Virus record (IMG/VR): IMGVR_UViG_3300009701_000005
Location: 1 to 64,000 of that record
DNA length: 64,000 bases
Origin: a virus
Lineage: Duplodnaviria > Caudoviricetes
Direction: 5' to 3' (one strand)
Shown here piece by piece: positions 9,143-30,147 of this stretch. The first letter of the stretch is position 1; every line of letters begins with the position of its first letter. The position numbers and the translations under genes are program-made. The notes under the pieces were generated by a model. The model did no database searches and had not been told where the DNA came from. It worked only from the letters and a program-made list of their open reading frames with translations.

Positions 9143-9868
9143 CTAATCTATAACCAATGGGTGAGTTGGGCAATTGGTCGGCCCGTCAGTCTGTAAAACT
9201 GATTCCCTAACGGGACGTGAAAATTCGAATTTTTCCTCACCCATCACTTCTTTCAGAGATGGGGCTACAACCAGGTACCCCTGGTACTTTAGAACATCTT
9301 CGCACAGCTTTAAGAACTCTGGTATAAGTAAATCGCTTTTAGCCCTATTAACTTCGGCGCTTAAAATGCCGCAATTAGATAGATCATTAACGCCTCCTTT
9401 GCTAGAGGGTACTATATGATCTAACTCCCAGCTTCGAGTATTTTGTATATCTATAGGTCTGCCTGATAAATAGCAAACAGGGTTATCCCCAATCTTTTCT
9501 TGTAATTGTTTAGGTGTGAAATTTAACTGGGATGCAGGCATATTTTTAATTTCGTTAGTTTTGTGGAAACTTCTTATTTTGAGATAGATATTTTTATCCA
9601 AAAAACTTTTTACGCTTCTCTTTTCTTTATTAATAGGATAAGAATAAAAGGGTATAGATTTTCTATATAAAAAATGTTCAATTTTGGGAATAAAAGGATC
9701 TGATTTTCTTCGTTTTTGCCTCCTGACAGAAGACTTCTTTTTTTGACCAAAACCTACGTGGTAAGATATAGTTCCTTTTGAACATCCAACTATTTCCGAA
9801 ATTTTGTTATAAGAAAAACCTAACTCACGTAATTCTAGTATTTTTTGCTTTTTTGTTTTTTCGTCCAT
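9143..9868 (-). CDS. HNH homing endonuclease with N-terminal helix-turn-helix
   Basis: ILELRELGFSYNKISEIVGCSKGTISYH; ELDHIVPSSKGGVNDLSNC...VNRAKSD; lone - strand gene. Confidence 0.85.
   Translation of the reverse strand: MDEKTKKQKILELRELGFSYNKISEIVGCSKGTISYHVGFGQKKKSSVRRQKRRKSDPFIPKIEHFLYRKSIPFYSYPINKEKRSVKSFLDKNIYLKIRSFHKTNEIKNMPASQLNFTPKQLQEKIGDNPVCYLSGRPIDIQNTRSWELDHIVPSSKGGVNDLSNCGILSAEVNRAKSDLLIPEFLKLCEDVLKYQGYLVVAPSLKEVMGEEKFEFSRPVRESVLQTDGPTNCPTHPLVID
9159..9243 (+). tRNA. tRNA-Tyr(GTA), no encoded CCA
   Basis: Acceptor GGGTGAG/CTCACCC, anticodon arm TCAGT-CTGTAAA-ACTGA, long V arm, TTCGAAT loop; followed by TCA. Confidence 0.85.
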
Positions 9869-11142: not shown

Positions 11143-11841
11143 ATGAAAAAATTGTTTTTAGCCGTAGCGTTAAGTGCAGTATTTAGCAATGCTTTCGCAC
11201 AAGAAGTAAAAGTTGATTTCGGAGTAACTAAGTTTACTCAAGTATCAAACGGTAATTGGTATCAAGAAGGCTTTCCTTATACCCTAAGACTGACTTCTCC
11301 AACAGCATCGATTAAGATCTTCACTGACAAAGGAGAGAGTGGCTGGCAATATGGCCTAGGATTCGATTATATGGGCCGTGTGACCTCCGATGCGATGGTT
11401 CTGGACTCAGATGCCAACTACAACGCAAACAGTCCTACGCACTGCAATGGACCTTGTGGACCCCTTTCTCATATGCAGGGTCAAGGAACTATTCCGAGTG
11501 CTTTTTTAGCTGCACGTAAGAATTATAGTACTTGGTTTTATGAAGTAGAAGGATACGCAACTCGCCCTAATTATGAGAATACTAATTATGACTGGTATGG
11601 TGGACCTAATAATTCTGTAGGACCTTTAGTATCTCATATTGACCATCAAGTTAAGACTACTTATGGATTAGGGCTGGCATTAGGATATAGACTTACCGGG
11701 GCTGATAGTGTAATGTTTAAACTGATTCCTACTGAGGCTAAGAATTCGCAATCAGATCCCCTCGCACCTTCTGGCACGGCTTATTACAAGGCTGTGTATG
11801 ATAAGGAATCGTTCAGTATTGTTTTGGAGCATTCATTCTAA
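11143..11841 (+). CDS. Secreted outer-membrane beta-barrel-like protein
   Basis: Signal peptide MKKLFLAVALSAVFSNAFA, alternating aromatic strands, C-terminal Phe (SIVLEHSF). Confidence 0.65.
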   Translation: MKKLFLAVALSAVFSNAFAQEVKVDFGVTKFTQVSNGNWYQEGFPYTLRLTSPTASIKIFTDKGESGWQYGLGFDYMGRVTSDAMVLDSDANYNANSPTHCNGPCGPLSHMQGQGTIPSAFLAARKNYSTWFYEVEGYATRPNYENTNYDWYGGPNNSVGPLVSHIDHQVKTTYGLGLALGYRLTGADSVMFKLIPTEAKNSQSDPLAPSGTAYYKAVYDKESFSIVLEHSF

Positions 11842-12507: not shown

Positions 12508-12774
12508 ATGAAAATGGAAAAAGTAGTACATTGTAAAAAAGGGCACCATGATGTTTACATAGGTAGGCCTTCCAAATGGGGCAATCCGTTCATCATAGGT
12601 AAAGATGGTACTAGAGAAGAAGTTATACGAAAGTACGAGAATTATATACTTGGATTTCCAGAATTGCTTGAACAATTATCTGAATTGAAAGGCAAAGTTC
12701 TAGGATGTTGGTGTAGACCTGAGGCATGCCACGGGGATGTATTAATTAAATTAGTGGCTGAAAGAGTCAAATGA
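12508..12774 (+). CDS. DUF4326 family protein
   Basis: DVYIGRPSKWGNPF...LKGKVLGCWCRPEACHGDVL. Confidence 0.85.
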   Translation: MKMEKVVHCKKGHHDVYIGRPSKWGNPFIIGKDGTREEVIRKYENYILGFPELLEQLSELKGKVLGCWCRPEACHGDVLIKLVAERVK

Positions 12775-12950
12775 GTTATAATTATATAGGATCTAAGCTT
12801 GAAAAAGTCAAAGAGATGACTGAAGAAGAGTTTGAACAAGCTACAGAGAAAGCTTTAGAAGAAGGATTACCCCATCTAACCTCTTGTTGTAAAAAAGAAG
12901 TTAGAGATATGGGTGGAGGCTGTTTATCTTGTGGAGATCCCTGTTTTTAA
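12771..12950 (+). CDS. Small Cys-rich hypothetical protein (59 aa)
   Basis: ATGA overlap; CC and CLSC motifs. Confidence 0.6.
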   Translation: MSYNYIGSKLEKVKEMTEEEFEQATEKALEEGLPHLTSCCKKEVRDMGGGCLSCGDPCF

Positions 12951-12962
12951 AAGGAAAATAAA

Positions 12963-13643
12963 ATGAAACGAACTATTGAAATACGAGCTGCAGAAGGTGG
13001 CGAAGACGCAAAATTATTTGCAACAGATTTAGGCAAGGCCTATCAGAAATATTTCACTAGTATCGGCTGAAGGAATCAGGTCTCCAGTCAACGTGGAATA
13101 GATTACGTAATACATGTTGAAGGGGAAGACCTTTCAAGTTTAGATGGGGAAGCTGGCGGCCATCGCGTTCAACGCATACCTCCCACGGAACGAAATGGAC
13201 GAGTTCATACAAGTACTGTAACAGTTGCAGTTATAGATTCAAGTATTAAATGTAATACGCTCGCAGATAGTCGAGAAGAAAGTGACTTCAAAATCGAATG
13301 GTATAGCGGCACTGGTTGTGGAGGACAGTACCGAAATAAGCATCAAAATAGCTGTAGATTGACGCATATTCCAACCGGATTAGAGCAAACAGCTCAGACT
13401 AGAAGCAGAACTAACAGTTATAACTTAGCCAAAACAGAGTTATTAAAAAGATTGGATGAGCTTGTTTTTAGTCAAAATAGCAGTAAAACGGCTGAGAACA
13501 GAAAGAAGCAGGTAGGAAGCGGAATGCGTGGAGATAAAATACGAACCTATAGATTCCAGGATGATACTTGTACTGACCACCTTACTGGTAAATCAGCCCC
13601 CTGTTCTCAGATTATGAAAGGTAAGTTCAACTTATTAAGGTAA
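12963..13643 (+). CDS. prfA: Class I peptide chain release factor, RF1-type, lacking domain 1, with in-frame TGA at 13068-13070
   Basis: IEIRAAEGGEDAKLFA...IG*...EAGGHRVQRIPPTERNGRVHTSTVTVAV...GTGCGGQ...THIPTG...DKIRTY, all one frame from ATG 12963. Confidence 0.88.
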
Positions 13644-14124: not shown

Positions 14125-15180
14125 ATGGGCGGCAACGCGCTTAAACATTTAGGCACTACTCGTAAAAGCAGTGATGAATACTTCAGTATAGCTGCAGACG
14201 TAAAAAGTAAACTGAGGCAGGCATTCTCTGGTGTTACGGTAATGCTTATAGATTCCTACTCTGAAAAAGAATCGTTCGGGGATATTGATATTCTTATCAG
14301 TAAGGATCCTTTGCCCGCAAATTGGCTCGACGTAATTAAGGCGGAGTTTAAACCTCAAGAAATCATTGATAATTTAGTAGTATCTTTTGATTATAAAGGT
14401 ATTCAGGTAGATCTAATCCCGACGCCTATGCATGAGATGAATATAGCCTTTACCTATTATTCATTTAATGATTTAGGGAACCTCATCGGGAGAATAGCCC
14501 ATAAGATGGGGCTGAAATACGGCCATAACGGCTTGTGGAAAGTTCTACGAGAAGACACTAGGGTAATAGCAAACATACTAGTATCCGATGAGCCTAAGGA
14601 AATTTTCAAATTCTTAGGCTACAATTATGAACGGTTTAATGAGGGCTTTGACACTTTAGAGGATATTTTTGTATTCGCGGCTTCAACGCCTTATTTTCAT
14701 AGAGATATCTTTCAGTTGGATAATATGAATCACGTAAGTAGGGTTAGAGATGCAAAGCGCCCAACTTACACGGCATTTTTGAAATGGATTGAAGATAAAC
14801 CTGAGTTAGATAAGTATACTTGGTATCCATATTCCGATCAAATGCTAGAGTCCTCTGAAAAGGAAGCTGTGAAATATGAATGGCTTCAAAAGGGGTTGTC
14901 TACTTTTCCAGATTTCAAGACTAAATACAACATAGCAATTCGGGAAGATGCGTTAAATCTGAAATTCAAGAAGAAGTGGAACGGAAAACTCATTGGAGAA
15001 GTTACCGGTTATACTGGTAAAAAATTGGGTTTTCTAGTAAAATGGTTAACTGACCCTAGTCCATCGTTTCGGGATAAGATACTGGAAATGACAGAAGTAG
15101 AGATTAAGGACATGATTTTCAAAAGTCTTCCTATTTATGAATCTATTTGGCTAGGTACGGAAGGCGAGAAAGTGAAGTAA
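14125..15180 (+). CDS. Pol beta-superfamily nucleotidyltransferase-like protein
   Basis: MGGNAL, KESFGDIDIL (GDxD), QVDLI, YYSFNDLGNLIGR. Confidence 0.7.
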   Translation: MGGNALKHLGTTRKSSDEYFSIAADVKSKLRQAFSGVTVMLIDSYSEKESFGDIDILISKDPLPANWLDVIKAEFKPQEIIDNLVVSFDYKGIQVDLIPTPMHEMNIAFTYYSFNDLGNLIGRIAHKMGLKYGHNGLWKVLREDTRVIANILVSDEPKEIFKFLGYNYERFNEGFDTLEDIFVFAASTPYFHRDIFQLDNMNHVSRVRDAKRPTYTAFLKWIEDKPELDKYTWYPYSDQMLESSEKEAVKYEWLQKGLSTFPDFKTKYNIAIREDALNLKFKKKWNGKLIGEVTGYTGKKLGFLVKWLTDPSPSFRDKILEMTEVEIKDMIFKSLPIYESIWLGTEGEKVK

Positions 15181-15834: not shown

Positions 15835-16374
15835 ATGGCAGGTAGTCCTAATGTATTCCTTATTTCAGATACTCATTTTAGACACGCAGGATCAGTAAAG
15901 TGGTTGGAACCAGATGGTTCTAAGACTCGTGAATTCGAAACTTCTGACGAGGTAGACGAATTGATGATTAAAAATTGGAATAAAACAGTTAAGCCTGTAG
16001 ATAAAGTGTATCATCTAGGGGATGTGTCAATGGGTACTAACTCAGCAGTTTCCGAAATTCTTAAACAATTGAACGGCACCAAAGTACTGATTAAAGGCAA
16101 TCATGATATCGGTAAATTGTCATGGTATGCTGAACATTTCAAAGATGTGAGGGGTAGTTGGCAATTAGGGGATTATGTATTGACCCACATTCCAGTTCAC
16201 CCCGGTTCTTTGTTTAGATGGCCTAAGGGTAATTTACATGGACACTACCACAAAAATCGTGTAAAATTAGAATCTGGTGAAATTGATCCACGCTACATTT
16301 GTATGAGCGTAGAGCAAATTAATTACACTCCTTATCCATTTGAAGGACTTAAAAACTTAACACCGCGGGTATAG
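15835..16374 (+). CDS. Calcineurin-like metallophosphoesterase
   Basis: SDTHF, HLGD, KGNHD, THIP, HGHYH motifs. Confidence 0.88.
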   Translation: MAGSPNVFLISDTHFRHAGSVKWLEPDGSKTREFETSDEVDELMIKNWNKTVKPVDKVYHLGDVSMGTNSAVSEILKQLNGTKVLIKGNHDIGKLSWYAEHFKDVRGSWQLGDYVLTHIPVHPGSLFRWPKGNLHGHYHKNRVKLESGEIDPRYICMSVEQINYTPYPFEGLKNLTPRV

Positions 16375-16437
16375 CACAACTGGTTAGTGCAACTGCCTTC
16401 CAAGCAGAAGATATCAGATCATACCTGATTACTCGCT
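16365..16437 (+). tRNA. tRNA-Gly(TCC) with atypical T-loop ATCATAC, no CCA
   Basis: Acceptor GCGGGTA/TACTCGC, D arm GCAC/GTGC, loop CTTCCAA, U73. Confidence 0.75.
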
Positions 16438-16458
16438 CTCTCCCTCCAAATTAACAGT

Positions 16459-29413: not shown

Positions 29414-29488
29414 GGGAACGTGATGGAATTGGTAGACATGCCGGGGTTGTACTCGGCCTTACAGGTTCGAAGCCTGTCGTTCCCTCCA
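29414..29488 (+). tRNA. tRNA-like element with 6-nt anticodon loop (isotype undetermined), CCA encoded
   Basis: Acceptor GGGAACG/CGTTCCC, D arm ATG-GAATTGGTAGA-CAT, stem CCGGG/CTCGG around GTTGTA, T arm ACAGG-TTCGAAG-CCTGT. Confidence 0.7.
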
Positions 29489-30070: not shown

Positions 30071-30147
30071 CACCACAGTATCTCAACGGGCTTCTACCCC
30101 GTAGCCGAGTAATTGGATCAATGGGAGTTCGAGTCTCTCCTGTGGTG
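30071..30147 (+). tRNA. D-armless tRNA-Arg(TCT)-like element with long variable arm
   Basis: CACCACAG/CTGTGGTG, anticodon arm ACGGG-CTTCTAC-CCCGT, T arm GGGAG-TTCGAGT-CTCTC; only 7 nt where D arm should be. Confidence 0.6.

Follow-up and report, generated by a model that had tools for sequence, protein, structure and literature searches.

Release factors whose synthesis depends on recoding

Regulated recoding within release-factor genes is a textbook form of translational feedback, and the only bacterial example that we know of is the frameshift in prfB. In the coat/A1 gene of Q-beta, a UGA-A sequence is reportedly read at low frequency as Trp by the normal tRNA-Trp, in work attributed to Weiner and Weber and to Engelberg-Kulka. 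PrfH (RF-H) is a release-factor homologue that lacks domain 1 and is paired with RtcB2.

In bacterial prfB, which encodes RF2, an autoregulatory +1 programmed frameshift occurs at a cassette consisting of a Shine-Dalgarno-like sequence, a spacer of three nucleotides (N3) and CUU UGA C (PMC12421855, PMC5009743). Before the sequence of prfB was determined, autoregulation by read-through had been postulated for RF2; it is listed as unknown in bacteria (PMC5009743). The same 2016 recoding review describes an early same-frame UGA as unknown in RF2 genes, and its UAG counterpart as unknown in RF1 genes, and the only viral case that it cites is a giant-virus release factor (PMC5009743). In a 2025 survey, prfA showed no programmed recoding (PMC12421855). 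The class I release factor gene of Mimivirus and Megavirus needs recoding at internal stops (Jeudy et al. 2012, PMC3521657). In passages that deal with release factors, RF1 genes are described in huge phages (PMC7162821), in TGA-recoded Jade phages (10.1101/2021.08.26.457843) and in Mycobacterium tRNA arrays (PMC5966550), and the RF1 gene of Jade phages is there described as encoded in the standard code (10.1101/2021.08.26.457843).

A phage release-factor gene with an in-frame UGA

We analysed a 64,000-nucleotide stretch of phage DNA (hereafter, the window), which is part of a virus record of 79,125 bp with 40% G+C. On its plus strand lies a frame of 226 codons that encodes a release-factor-like protein and is interrupted by a single UGA. 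The features of the locus are as follows.

12951-12955, plus strand: Shine-Dalgarno-like AAGGA, 7 nt upstream of the ATG at 12963
12963-13643, plus strand: read-through frame, 226 codons with one internal stop, read from the sequence
12963-13067, plus strand: codons 1-35, first strand and helix alpha5 of the codon-reading superdomain
12996-13007, plus strand: GGED tip, within codons 1-35, from the translation
13068-13070, plus strand: in-frame UGA, codon 36, in the context GGC UGA A, at a conserved Trp position
13071-13643, plus strand: codons 37-226 and TAA stop, rest of domain 2/4 and GGQ domain 3
13179-13187, plus strand: PPT tripeptide (residues 73-75), from the translation
13320-13328, plus strand: GGQ motif (residues 120-122), from the translation, invariant in the family

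The frame terminates at the TAA at 13641-13643. A preliminary description of this DNA had noted only a 94-aa fragment in the list of open reading frames; the table 11 list does contain this ORF, beside one of 35 aa, and no others at the locus. No restart codon (ATG, GTG or TTG) occurs within 13071-13358, i.e. in the 96 codons past the UGA. Immediately 5′ of the gene, at 12508-12950, tightly packed genes encode a DUF4326 protein (88 aa, 99 bits) and a 59-aa Cys-rich protein that ends in CGDPCF. A 153-nt contig from an RNA library matches 13447-13599, inside the release-factor gene.

The read-through product resembles RF1 without its first domain

The read-through product matches the Pfam families PCRF (PF03462, 83 bits) and RF-1 (PF00472, 56 bits). 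Among NCBIfam models, it scores 182 bits with RF1 (NF001859 / TIGR00019), which is below the equivalog cut-off of 400 bits, compared with 91 bits for RF2 (TIGR00020) and 42 bits for PrfH (TIGR03072). The match to the RF1 model begins only at position 107 and spans positions 107-332 of 347, so domain 1 is absent; the start Met is common to all homologues. The best sequence matches among solved structures are RF1 proteins (E 1e-38), and in an alignment to RF1 of T. maritima and S. mutans the UGA coincides with the Trp of the RF1 ‘GW’. An AlphaFold2 model of the product (mean pLDDT 80) has a strand at residues 2-11 and a helix at 14-34, and the top matches in a fold search with this model are ribosome-bound RF1 structures (TM 0.78-0.82), with RF2 lower. 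We rejected two other identities. RF2 (prfB) disagrees with both the tripeptide, which is PPT rather than SPF, and the HMM scores given above, while PrfH falls far below its cut-off of 167 bits and its structure (9mor) ranks 50th in the fold search. Judged by its sequence and predicted fold, the product is a short RF1-type class I release factor that comprises domains 2-4 and lacks domain 1. These analyses bear out three claims of the preliminary description, namely that the factor is of RF1 type (PPT, GGQ and the best HMM and fold matches), that domain 1 is missing and that the UGA replaces the Trp of ‘GW’.

With regard to codon reading, the Pro-x-Thr tripeptide reads UAA and UAG according to what Ito et al. 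are said to have reported in 2000. The third-base pocket typical of RF1 is also present, in that the Gln of HRVQR and the Thr of HTS are conserved, and the factor should thus read UAA and UAG. The first base of the stop codon is read by the tip of alpha5. This tip is GGED in every family member and GGEE or GGDE in RF1, so that a universal Glu has become Asp; we assume that RF1 specificity, as predicted from the sequence, is unchanged, although the change from GGxE to GGED leaves some doubt. As residues 1-35 include alpha5, a product started after the UGA would miss part of the decoding site.

The family-wide Glu-to-Asp change could alternatively reflect autoregulation, whereby the short factor itself reads UGA and, when abundant, terminates its own synthesis at codon 36. 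However, the PxT tripeptide, the Gln of HRVQR and the Thr of HTS all match RF1 and not RF2, and both the HMM and fold comparisons rank RF1 above RF2. We therefore consider self-recognition of the UGA possible but rather unlikely; evidence from bacterial relatives that bears on it is given below.

Other phages encode small stand-alone GGQ-domain proteins (IMG/VR contigs L027-L049, e.g. L028:125-436). These have about 110-150 residues where the full frame is readable and are without a codon-reading domain. They carry the WFSGTGAGGQYRNKHQNCCRI motif, as does domain 3 of the short release factors.

Conservation of the UGA

Scans guided by the protein sequence recovered 250 relatives from IMG/VR and over 390 from metagenome contigs. 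The nearest relatives are about 63-66% identical among 377 matches, and the best full-length match is 63.6% identical; among INPHARED phage records there is no close homologue, every match being below 40% identity. All fetched loci that carry the N-terminal motif, 181 in number, collapse to 140 unique gene sequences, which share about 55-63% identity with the copy in the window. All of them have TGA as the aligned codon (181/181 loci, 140/140 unique sequences), far more often than chance would give. We also scanned IMG/VR with the family's N-terminal motif followed by GGN-TGG, and none of the eight matches is a release factor; they arose by chance in unrelated frames. With TGA in place of TGG, the pattern yielded at least 120 matches. 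No homologue has Cys at the UGA position.

Selection was compared on both sides of the stop by pairwise analysis of the family alignment. Codons 1-35 have a pN of 0.20 vs a pS of 0.73, and codons 37-95, in the zero frame, a pN of 0.20 vs a pS of 0.69. Since pS is saturated at about 0.7 and pN is about 0.2 on either side, we conclude that both parts are translated in a single frame and that selection acts on the TGA. The TGA is also kept in two independent assemblies from other samples and studies, one of which has a synonymous change at 13064, 4 nt upstream of the TGA. The best-matching run and two other runs that contain the stretch are recorded as moss metagenomes.

The preliminary description had allowed that homologues might carry TGG, that the downstream sequence might be decayed, or that the TGA might be a sequencing error. 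The results speak against each of these: tabulation of the homologous codon gave TGA throughout, with no TGG homologue, purifying selection continues past the stop, and independent runs retain the TGA. The idea of a pseudogene or sequencing error could draw on the fact that gene callers split the gene, but 140 unique sequences share the same stop without any other defect, and we give this idea almost no credence. As the stop is kept in every relative examined, comparison of the sequences indicates that the UGA is a built-in control point, not damage.

Because gene callers split or truncate them, these short release-factor genes are under-annotated. Database entries from long contigs are fragments of 182-189 residues, and the full-length entries, which come from contigs of about 1 kb, were probably called with code 4.

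Nucleotide context and a downstream hairpin

The preliminary description had placed the UGA in a UGA-A context, and in the window the following base is indeed A. At this +4 position, the 140 sequences have A 112 times, G 17 times, C 11 times and never U, and the preceding codon encodes Gly in 139.

In the main clade of the family, a 13-bp stem starts 12 nt after the UGA. In this stem, 92% of cells are paired vs 31-48% in slid controls, and seven pairs have compensatory changes, with a score that was reached by none of 500 shuffles; the structure was derived from the same related sequences on which covariation was scored. Among 18 windows compared in 32 cluster representatives, the 66-nt window starting from the UGA has the lowest mean folding z (-1.37). 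RNAalifold found no consensus structure across the 32 cluster representatives; a hairpin is supported in the main clade alone. For the window's own copy, the minimum-free-energy fold gives the following.

13081-13126, plus strand: putative bipartite hairpin, 13 bp, 10 nt past the UGA

Here, 13081-13085 and 13088-13095 pair with 13113-13120 and 13122-13126. The hairpin's energy of -17.1 kcal/mol (z -1.94) is equalled by 9 of 200 shuffles, i.e. it marginally beats them, and it stays putative because this copy has no close relative for covariation analysis. The window copy is also without the conserved ACUACCCGCCUGAUA context of the main clade. A small stem that would enclose the UGA (GGY with GCC) has no covariation, and was discarded since a UGA in the ribosomal A site would place the 5′ arm of this stem in the P site.

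Codons 37-45 have less synonymous variation, and the sequence UGA ACU ACC CGC CUG AUA is common to many clusters. In the main clade, ACU ACC CGC CUG AUA is near-invariant directly after the UGA (e.g. L002:4304-4330) and lies 5′ of the covarying hairpin; the rare Ile codon AUA is present in 100 of 105 sequences.

Recoding is local

The preliminary description had stated that TGA is an ordinary stop elsewhere in this DNA, and this holds for the genome, in which 30 of 123 genes end in TGA and the standard code fits. Coding density by greedy ORF tiling is 0.883 under both code 11 and code 4. A genome-wide TGA=Trp code (table 4) was rejected on the grounds of these equal densities, the 30 genes ending in TGA and the lack of any other credible in-frame TGA. 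Only one other long frame has a central TGA, outside the window (67852-70227 of the virus record, minus strand; G000 C1), and here the TGA is the stop of the large terminase gene. The following gene begins 15 codons further on in that frame, such that code 4 mimics a 791-aa fusion. The recoding is local, and the genome uses the standard code.

A search of the rest of the genome for a UGA-reading tRNA, as had been proposed, found none. In searches with ARAGORN, and with Rfam in the case of the genome, a tRNA with a UCA anticodon is absent from the 79-kb genome, from 139 flanks of related genes and from five tRNA arrays, and the window has no tRNA-Trp. Two unusual tRNA genes in the window cannot read UGA.

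29414-29488: tRNA-like gene with a 6-nt anticodon loop, GUUGUA
30072-30147: D-armless tRNA with anticodon UCU

A tRNA-Trp decoder of the Hirsh type was considered and rejected, as position 11-24 is U11-A24 in some array tRNA-Trp genes and C11-G24 in others, including that of Thiobacillus.

These results bear on the proposal that a dedicated decoder reads the UGA, whether this is a suppressor tRNA, a TGA=Trp code that applies genome-wide or to late genes, or hairpin-directed insertion of selenocysteine. TGA-recoded phages carrying RF1 do exist, as the release-factor passages of a preprint describe (Borges et al., 10.1101/2021.08.26.457843), and a hairpin about 12 nt past the UGA recalls the bacterial SECIS element. 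However, the lack of a tRNA(UCA) in the genome, flanks and arrays, the fit of the standard code, the absence of Cys homologues at a position that is Trp in RF1, and the standard code of Thiobacillus and Variovorax, two bacterial carriers of related genes, all disagree with such a decoder, and we consider it very unlikely.

Association with tRNA genes

The release-factor gene of the window is found within a region of dispersed tRNA genes, of which the following are nearest.

9158-9245, plus strand: tRNA-Tyr(GTA), nearest upstream tRNA, found by ARAGORN
16365-16438, plus strand: tRNA-Gly(TCC), nearest downstream tRNA, found by ARAGORN and Rfam

This linkage extends to related genes. tRNA genes on the same strand are present in the fetched flanks at 93 of 139 distinct loci, with no suppressor tRNA among them. 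Five relatives are fragments of 127-147 kb, estimated to be 32-41% complete, with 11-50 tRNA genes each, and in all four relatives whose coordinates were compared the tRNA array ends just upstream of the release-factor gene.

Two further proteins are encoded near the gene in the window, neither of which has a Pfam match. A 351-aa protein (14125-15180) has a GDIDIL motif suggestive of a nucleotidyltransferase. A 232-aa protein (11143-11841) has a signal peptide and a C-terminal Phe; from its sequence it may be an outer-membrane beta-barrel, and the host may accordingly be Gram-negative.

Bacterial relatives

Related short factors were found in four bacterial or plasmid records. Thiobacillus denitrificans DSM 12475 (NZ_AQWL01000017.1, L374:4001-4670) has a PPT-type short factor of 222 residues, whose gene directly follows a tRNA-Trp(CCA) gene inside an array of 30 tRNAs. 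This gene is interrupted by GGGGU-CAU-CUU-UGA-C and continues in the +1 frame, i.e. it contains a canonical prfB-like cassette. At the same place, a Hydrogenophilales metagenome-assembled genome (L363) has GGGGG-CAC-CUU-UGA-C, and its gene is arranged in the same way. In Variovorax megaplasmids, an in-frame GGC UGA C lies at this same site, which is a second one distinct from that of the phages, and the gene is annotated as two ORFs: on plasmid 2 of Variovorax sp. WDL1 (NZ_LR594690.1, L442:4779-5483), a 56-aa hypothetical protein and a ‘peptide chain release factor-like protein’ are together one gene. Its neighbours are ten tRNA genes, an HNH endonuclease gene and a SecB-like gene. Finally, in a contig binned as Rhodospirillales, the UGA is at the site used in phages, in the context CGC UGA A.

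The short factors are monophyletic (100/100) in a maximum-likelihood tree and lie apart from the sampled full-length RF1 proteins. The clade of short factors splits into a subclade with the UGA at the Trp site and a subclade with the second site. As read-through at the Trp site, read-through at the second site and the +1 cassette all occur in one clade, the sequences indicate that UGA gating is a trait of this family that is realised in three ways. The parallel with prfB, which the preliminary description had drawn from the phage gene, is strengthened by bacterial relatives that carry a +1 frameshift cassette of the prfB type.

The relatives lend further weight to the autoregulation described above. 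All three types of gate use UGA, and never UAG or UAA, and one subclade has a complete prfB cassette, whose known logic is self-sensing. Moreover, self-sensing would not depend on the host, as befits a mobile module. It is conceivable, though on balance doubtful, that the short factors borne on tRNA arrays represent a third functional kind of bacterial-type class I factor, with changed codon reading, in which the UGA is self-recognised and an autoregulatory read-through loop results. If so, bacteria would have, in the 3′ hairpin, a first signal for UGA read-through that acts by structure and does not serve selenocysteine.

The relatives also help to assess whether the UGA is simply a fixed attenuator that senses nothing and caps a potentially toxic factor at a few percent. 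Overexpression of release factors is harmful in bacteria (PMC12421855), and an early stop caps output cheaply, with the hairpin and nucleotide context perhaps just setting the level. However, a weak ribosome-binding site or promoter would suffice for this purpose, yet the UGA is kept in 140 divergent sequences, and the UGA gates of the sister subclade differ in both site and mechanism. These two observations indicate that a property specific to UGA matters, and a fixed attenuator seems unlikely to us.

Proposed mechanism

We consider it rather probable that the gene is controlled by programmed UGA read-through that inserts Trp, and that this ties the supply of the factor to how efficiently RF2 stops ribosomes at UGA. 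In the phage clade, the sequences exclude +1 frameshifting, since the frame continues in the zero frame. Because no suppressor tRNA is present, competition between a near-cognate tRNA-Trp and RF2 would be the simplest mechanism.

Under this proposal of Trp-inserting read-through, ribosomes would initiate at 12963 and meet the UGA at codon 36. The majority would probably terminate via host RF2 and release a 35-residue peptide, and a fraction would decode the UGA by the near-cognate tRNA-Trp(CCA), which would restore the ancestral Trp and yield the full 226-residue factor. Read-through would be favoured by a weak termination context (Gly in the P site and, at +4, A in the window's copy and U in no relative), as well as by the early position of the UGA and the RNA hairpin about 10-12 nt downstream. 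Output would then reflect how often the UGA is decoded, relative to termination by RF2, during infection. A shortage of RF2 would lead to more of a factor that reads UAA and UAG, which could assume termination at UAA and free RF2 for UGA.

The insertion of Trp, the competition with RF2 and a homeostatic purpose are what we infer from these features. As the factor, by its sequence, should read UAA and UAG, the gate would report whether RF2 is sufficient rather than the factor's own level. The homeostatic logic is a conjecture, since sensing UGA brings no direct benefit to a factor that does not itself read this codon.

Comparison with known systems

In targeted literature searches, we found no published account of a UGA-gated short phage release factor. 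A same-frame UGA is now seen in RF1-type phage genes (181 loci), and the sister genes in bacterial arrays have a second UGA site or a prfB cassette. These genes offer a natural system for learning how the level of UGA read-through in bacteria depends on RF2 activity, near-cognate tRNA-Trp and a 3′ hairpin, and of what use a release factor without domain 1 is to large phages and mobile tRNA arrays.

The phage gene is like prfB in that an early in-frame UGA interrupts a release-factor gene, such that passage beyond the UGA sets the amount made. There are, however, three differences. The phage gene continues in the zero frame, which corresponds to read-through and not to frameshifting. Its UGA lies in domain 2 at a Trp codon, and not in domain 1. 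Furthermore, the phage factor is of RF1 type and, by sequence, should not read its own gating codon.

The release-factor gene of Mimivirus and Megavirus is similar in being encoded by a virus and in depending on recoding that includes read-through. It is, however, a homologue of the eukaryotic/archaeal-type eRF1 in viruses of amoebae, and involves both frameshifting and read-through, whereas the phage gene encodes a bacterial-type RF1 and has a single UGA read-through. The Q-beta gene likewise has an in-frame UGA followed by A in a host with the standard code, and its read-through product is a minor capsid protein that is extended at the C terminus. In contrast, the UGA of the phage gene comes early and replaces a conserved Trp codon, and the short product probably has no use.

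With the RF1 genes of huge phages, Jade phages and Mycobacterium tRNA arrays, as far as these are described in release-factor passages, the gene shares its location on phages and mobile tRNA arrays; those passages do not report an internal stop for any of them. Lastly, the phage factor resembles PrfH in being without domain 1, but differs from it in that the motifs for reading stop codons are retained.
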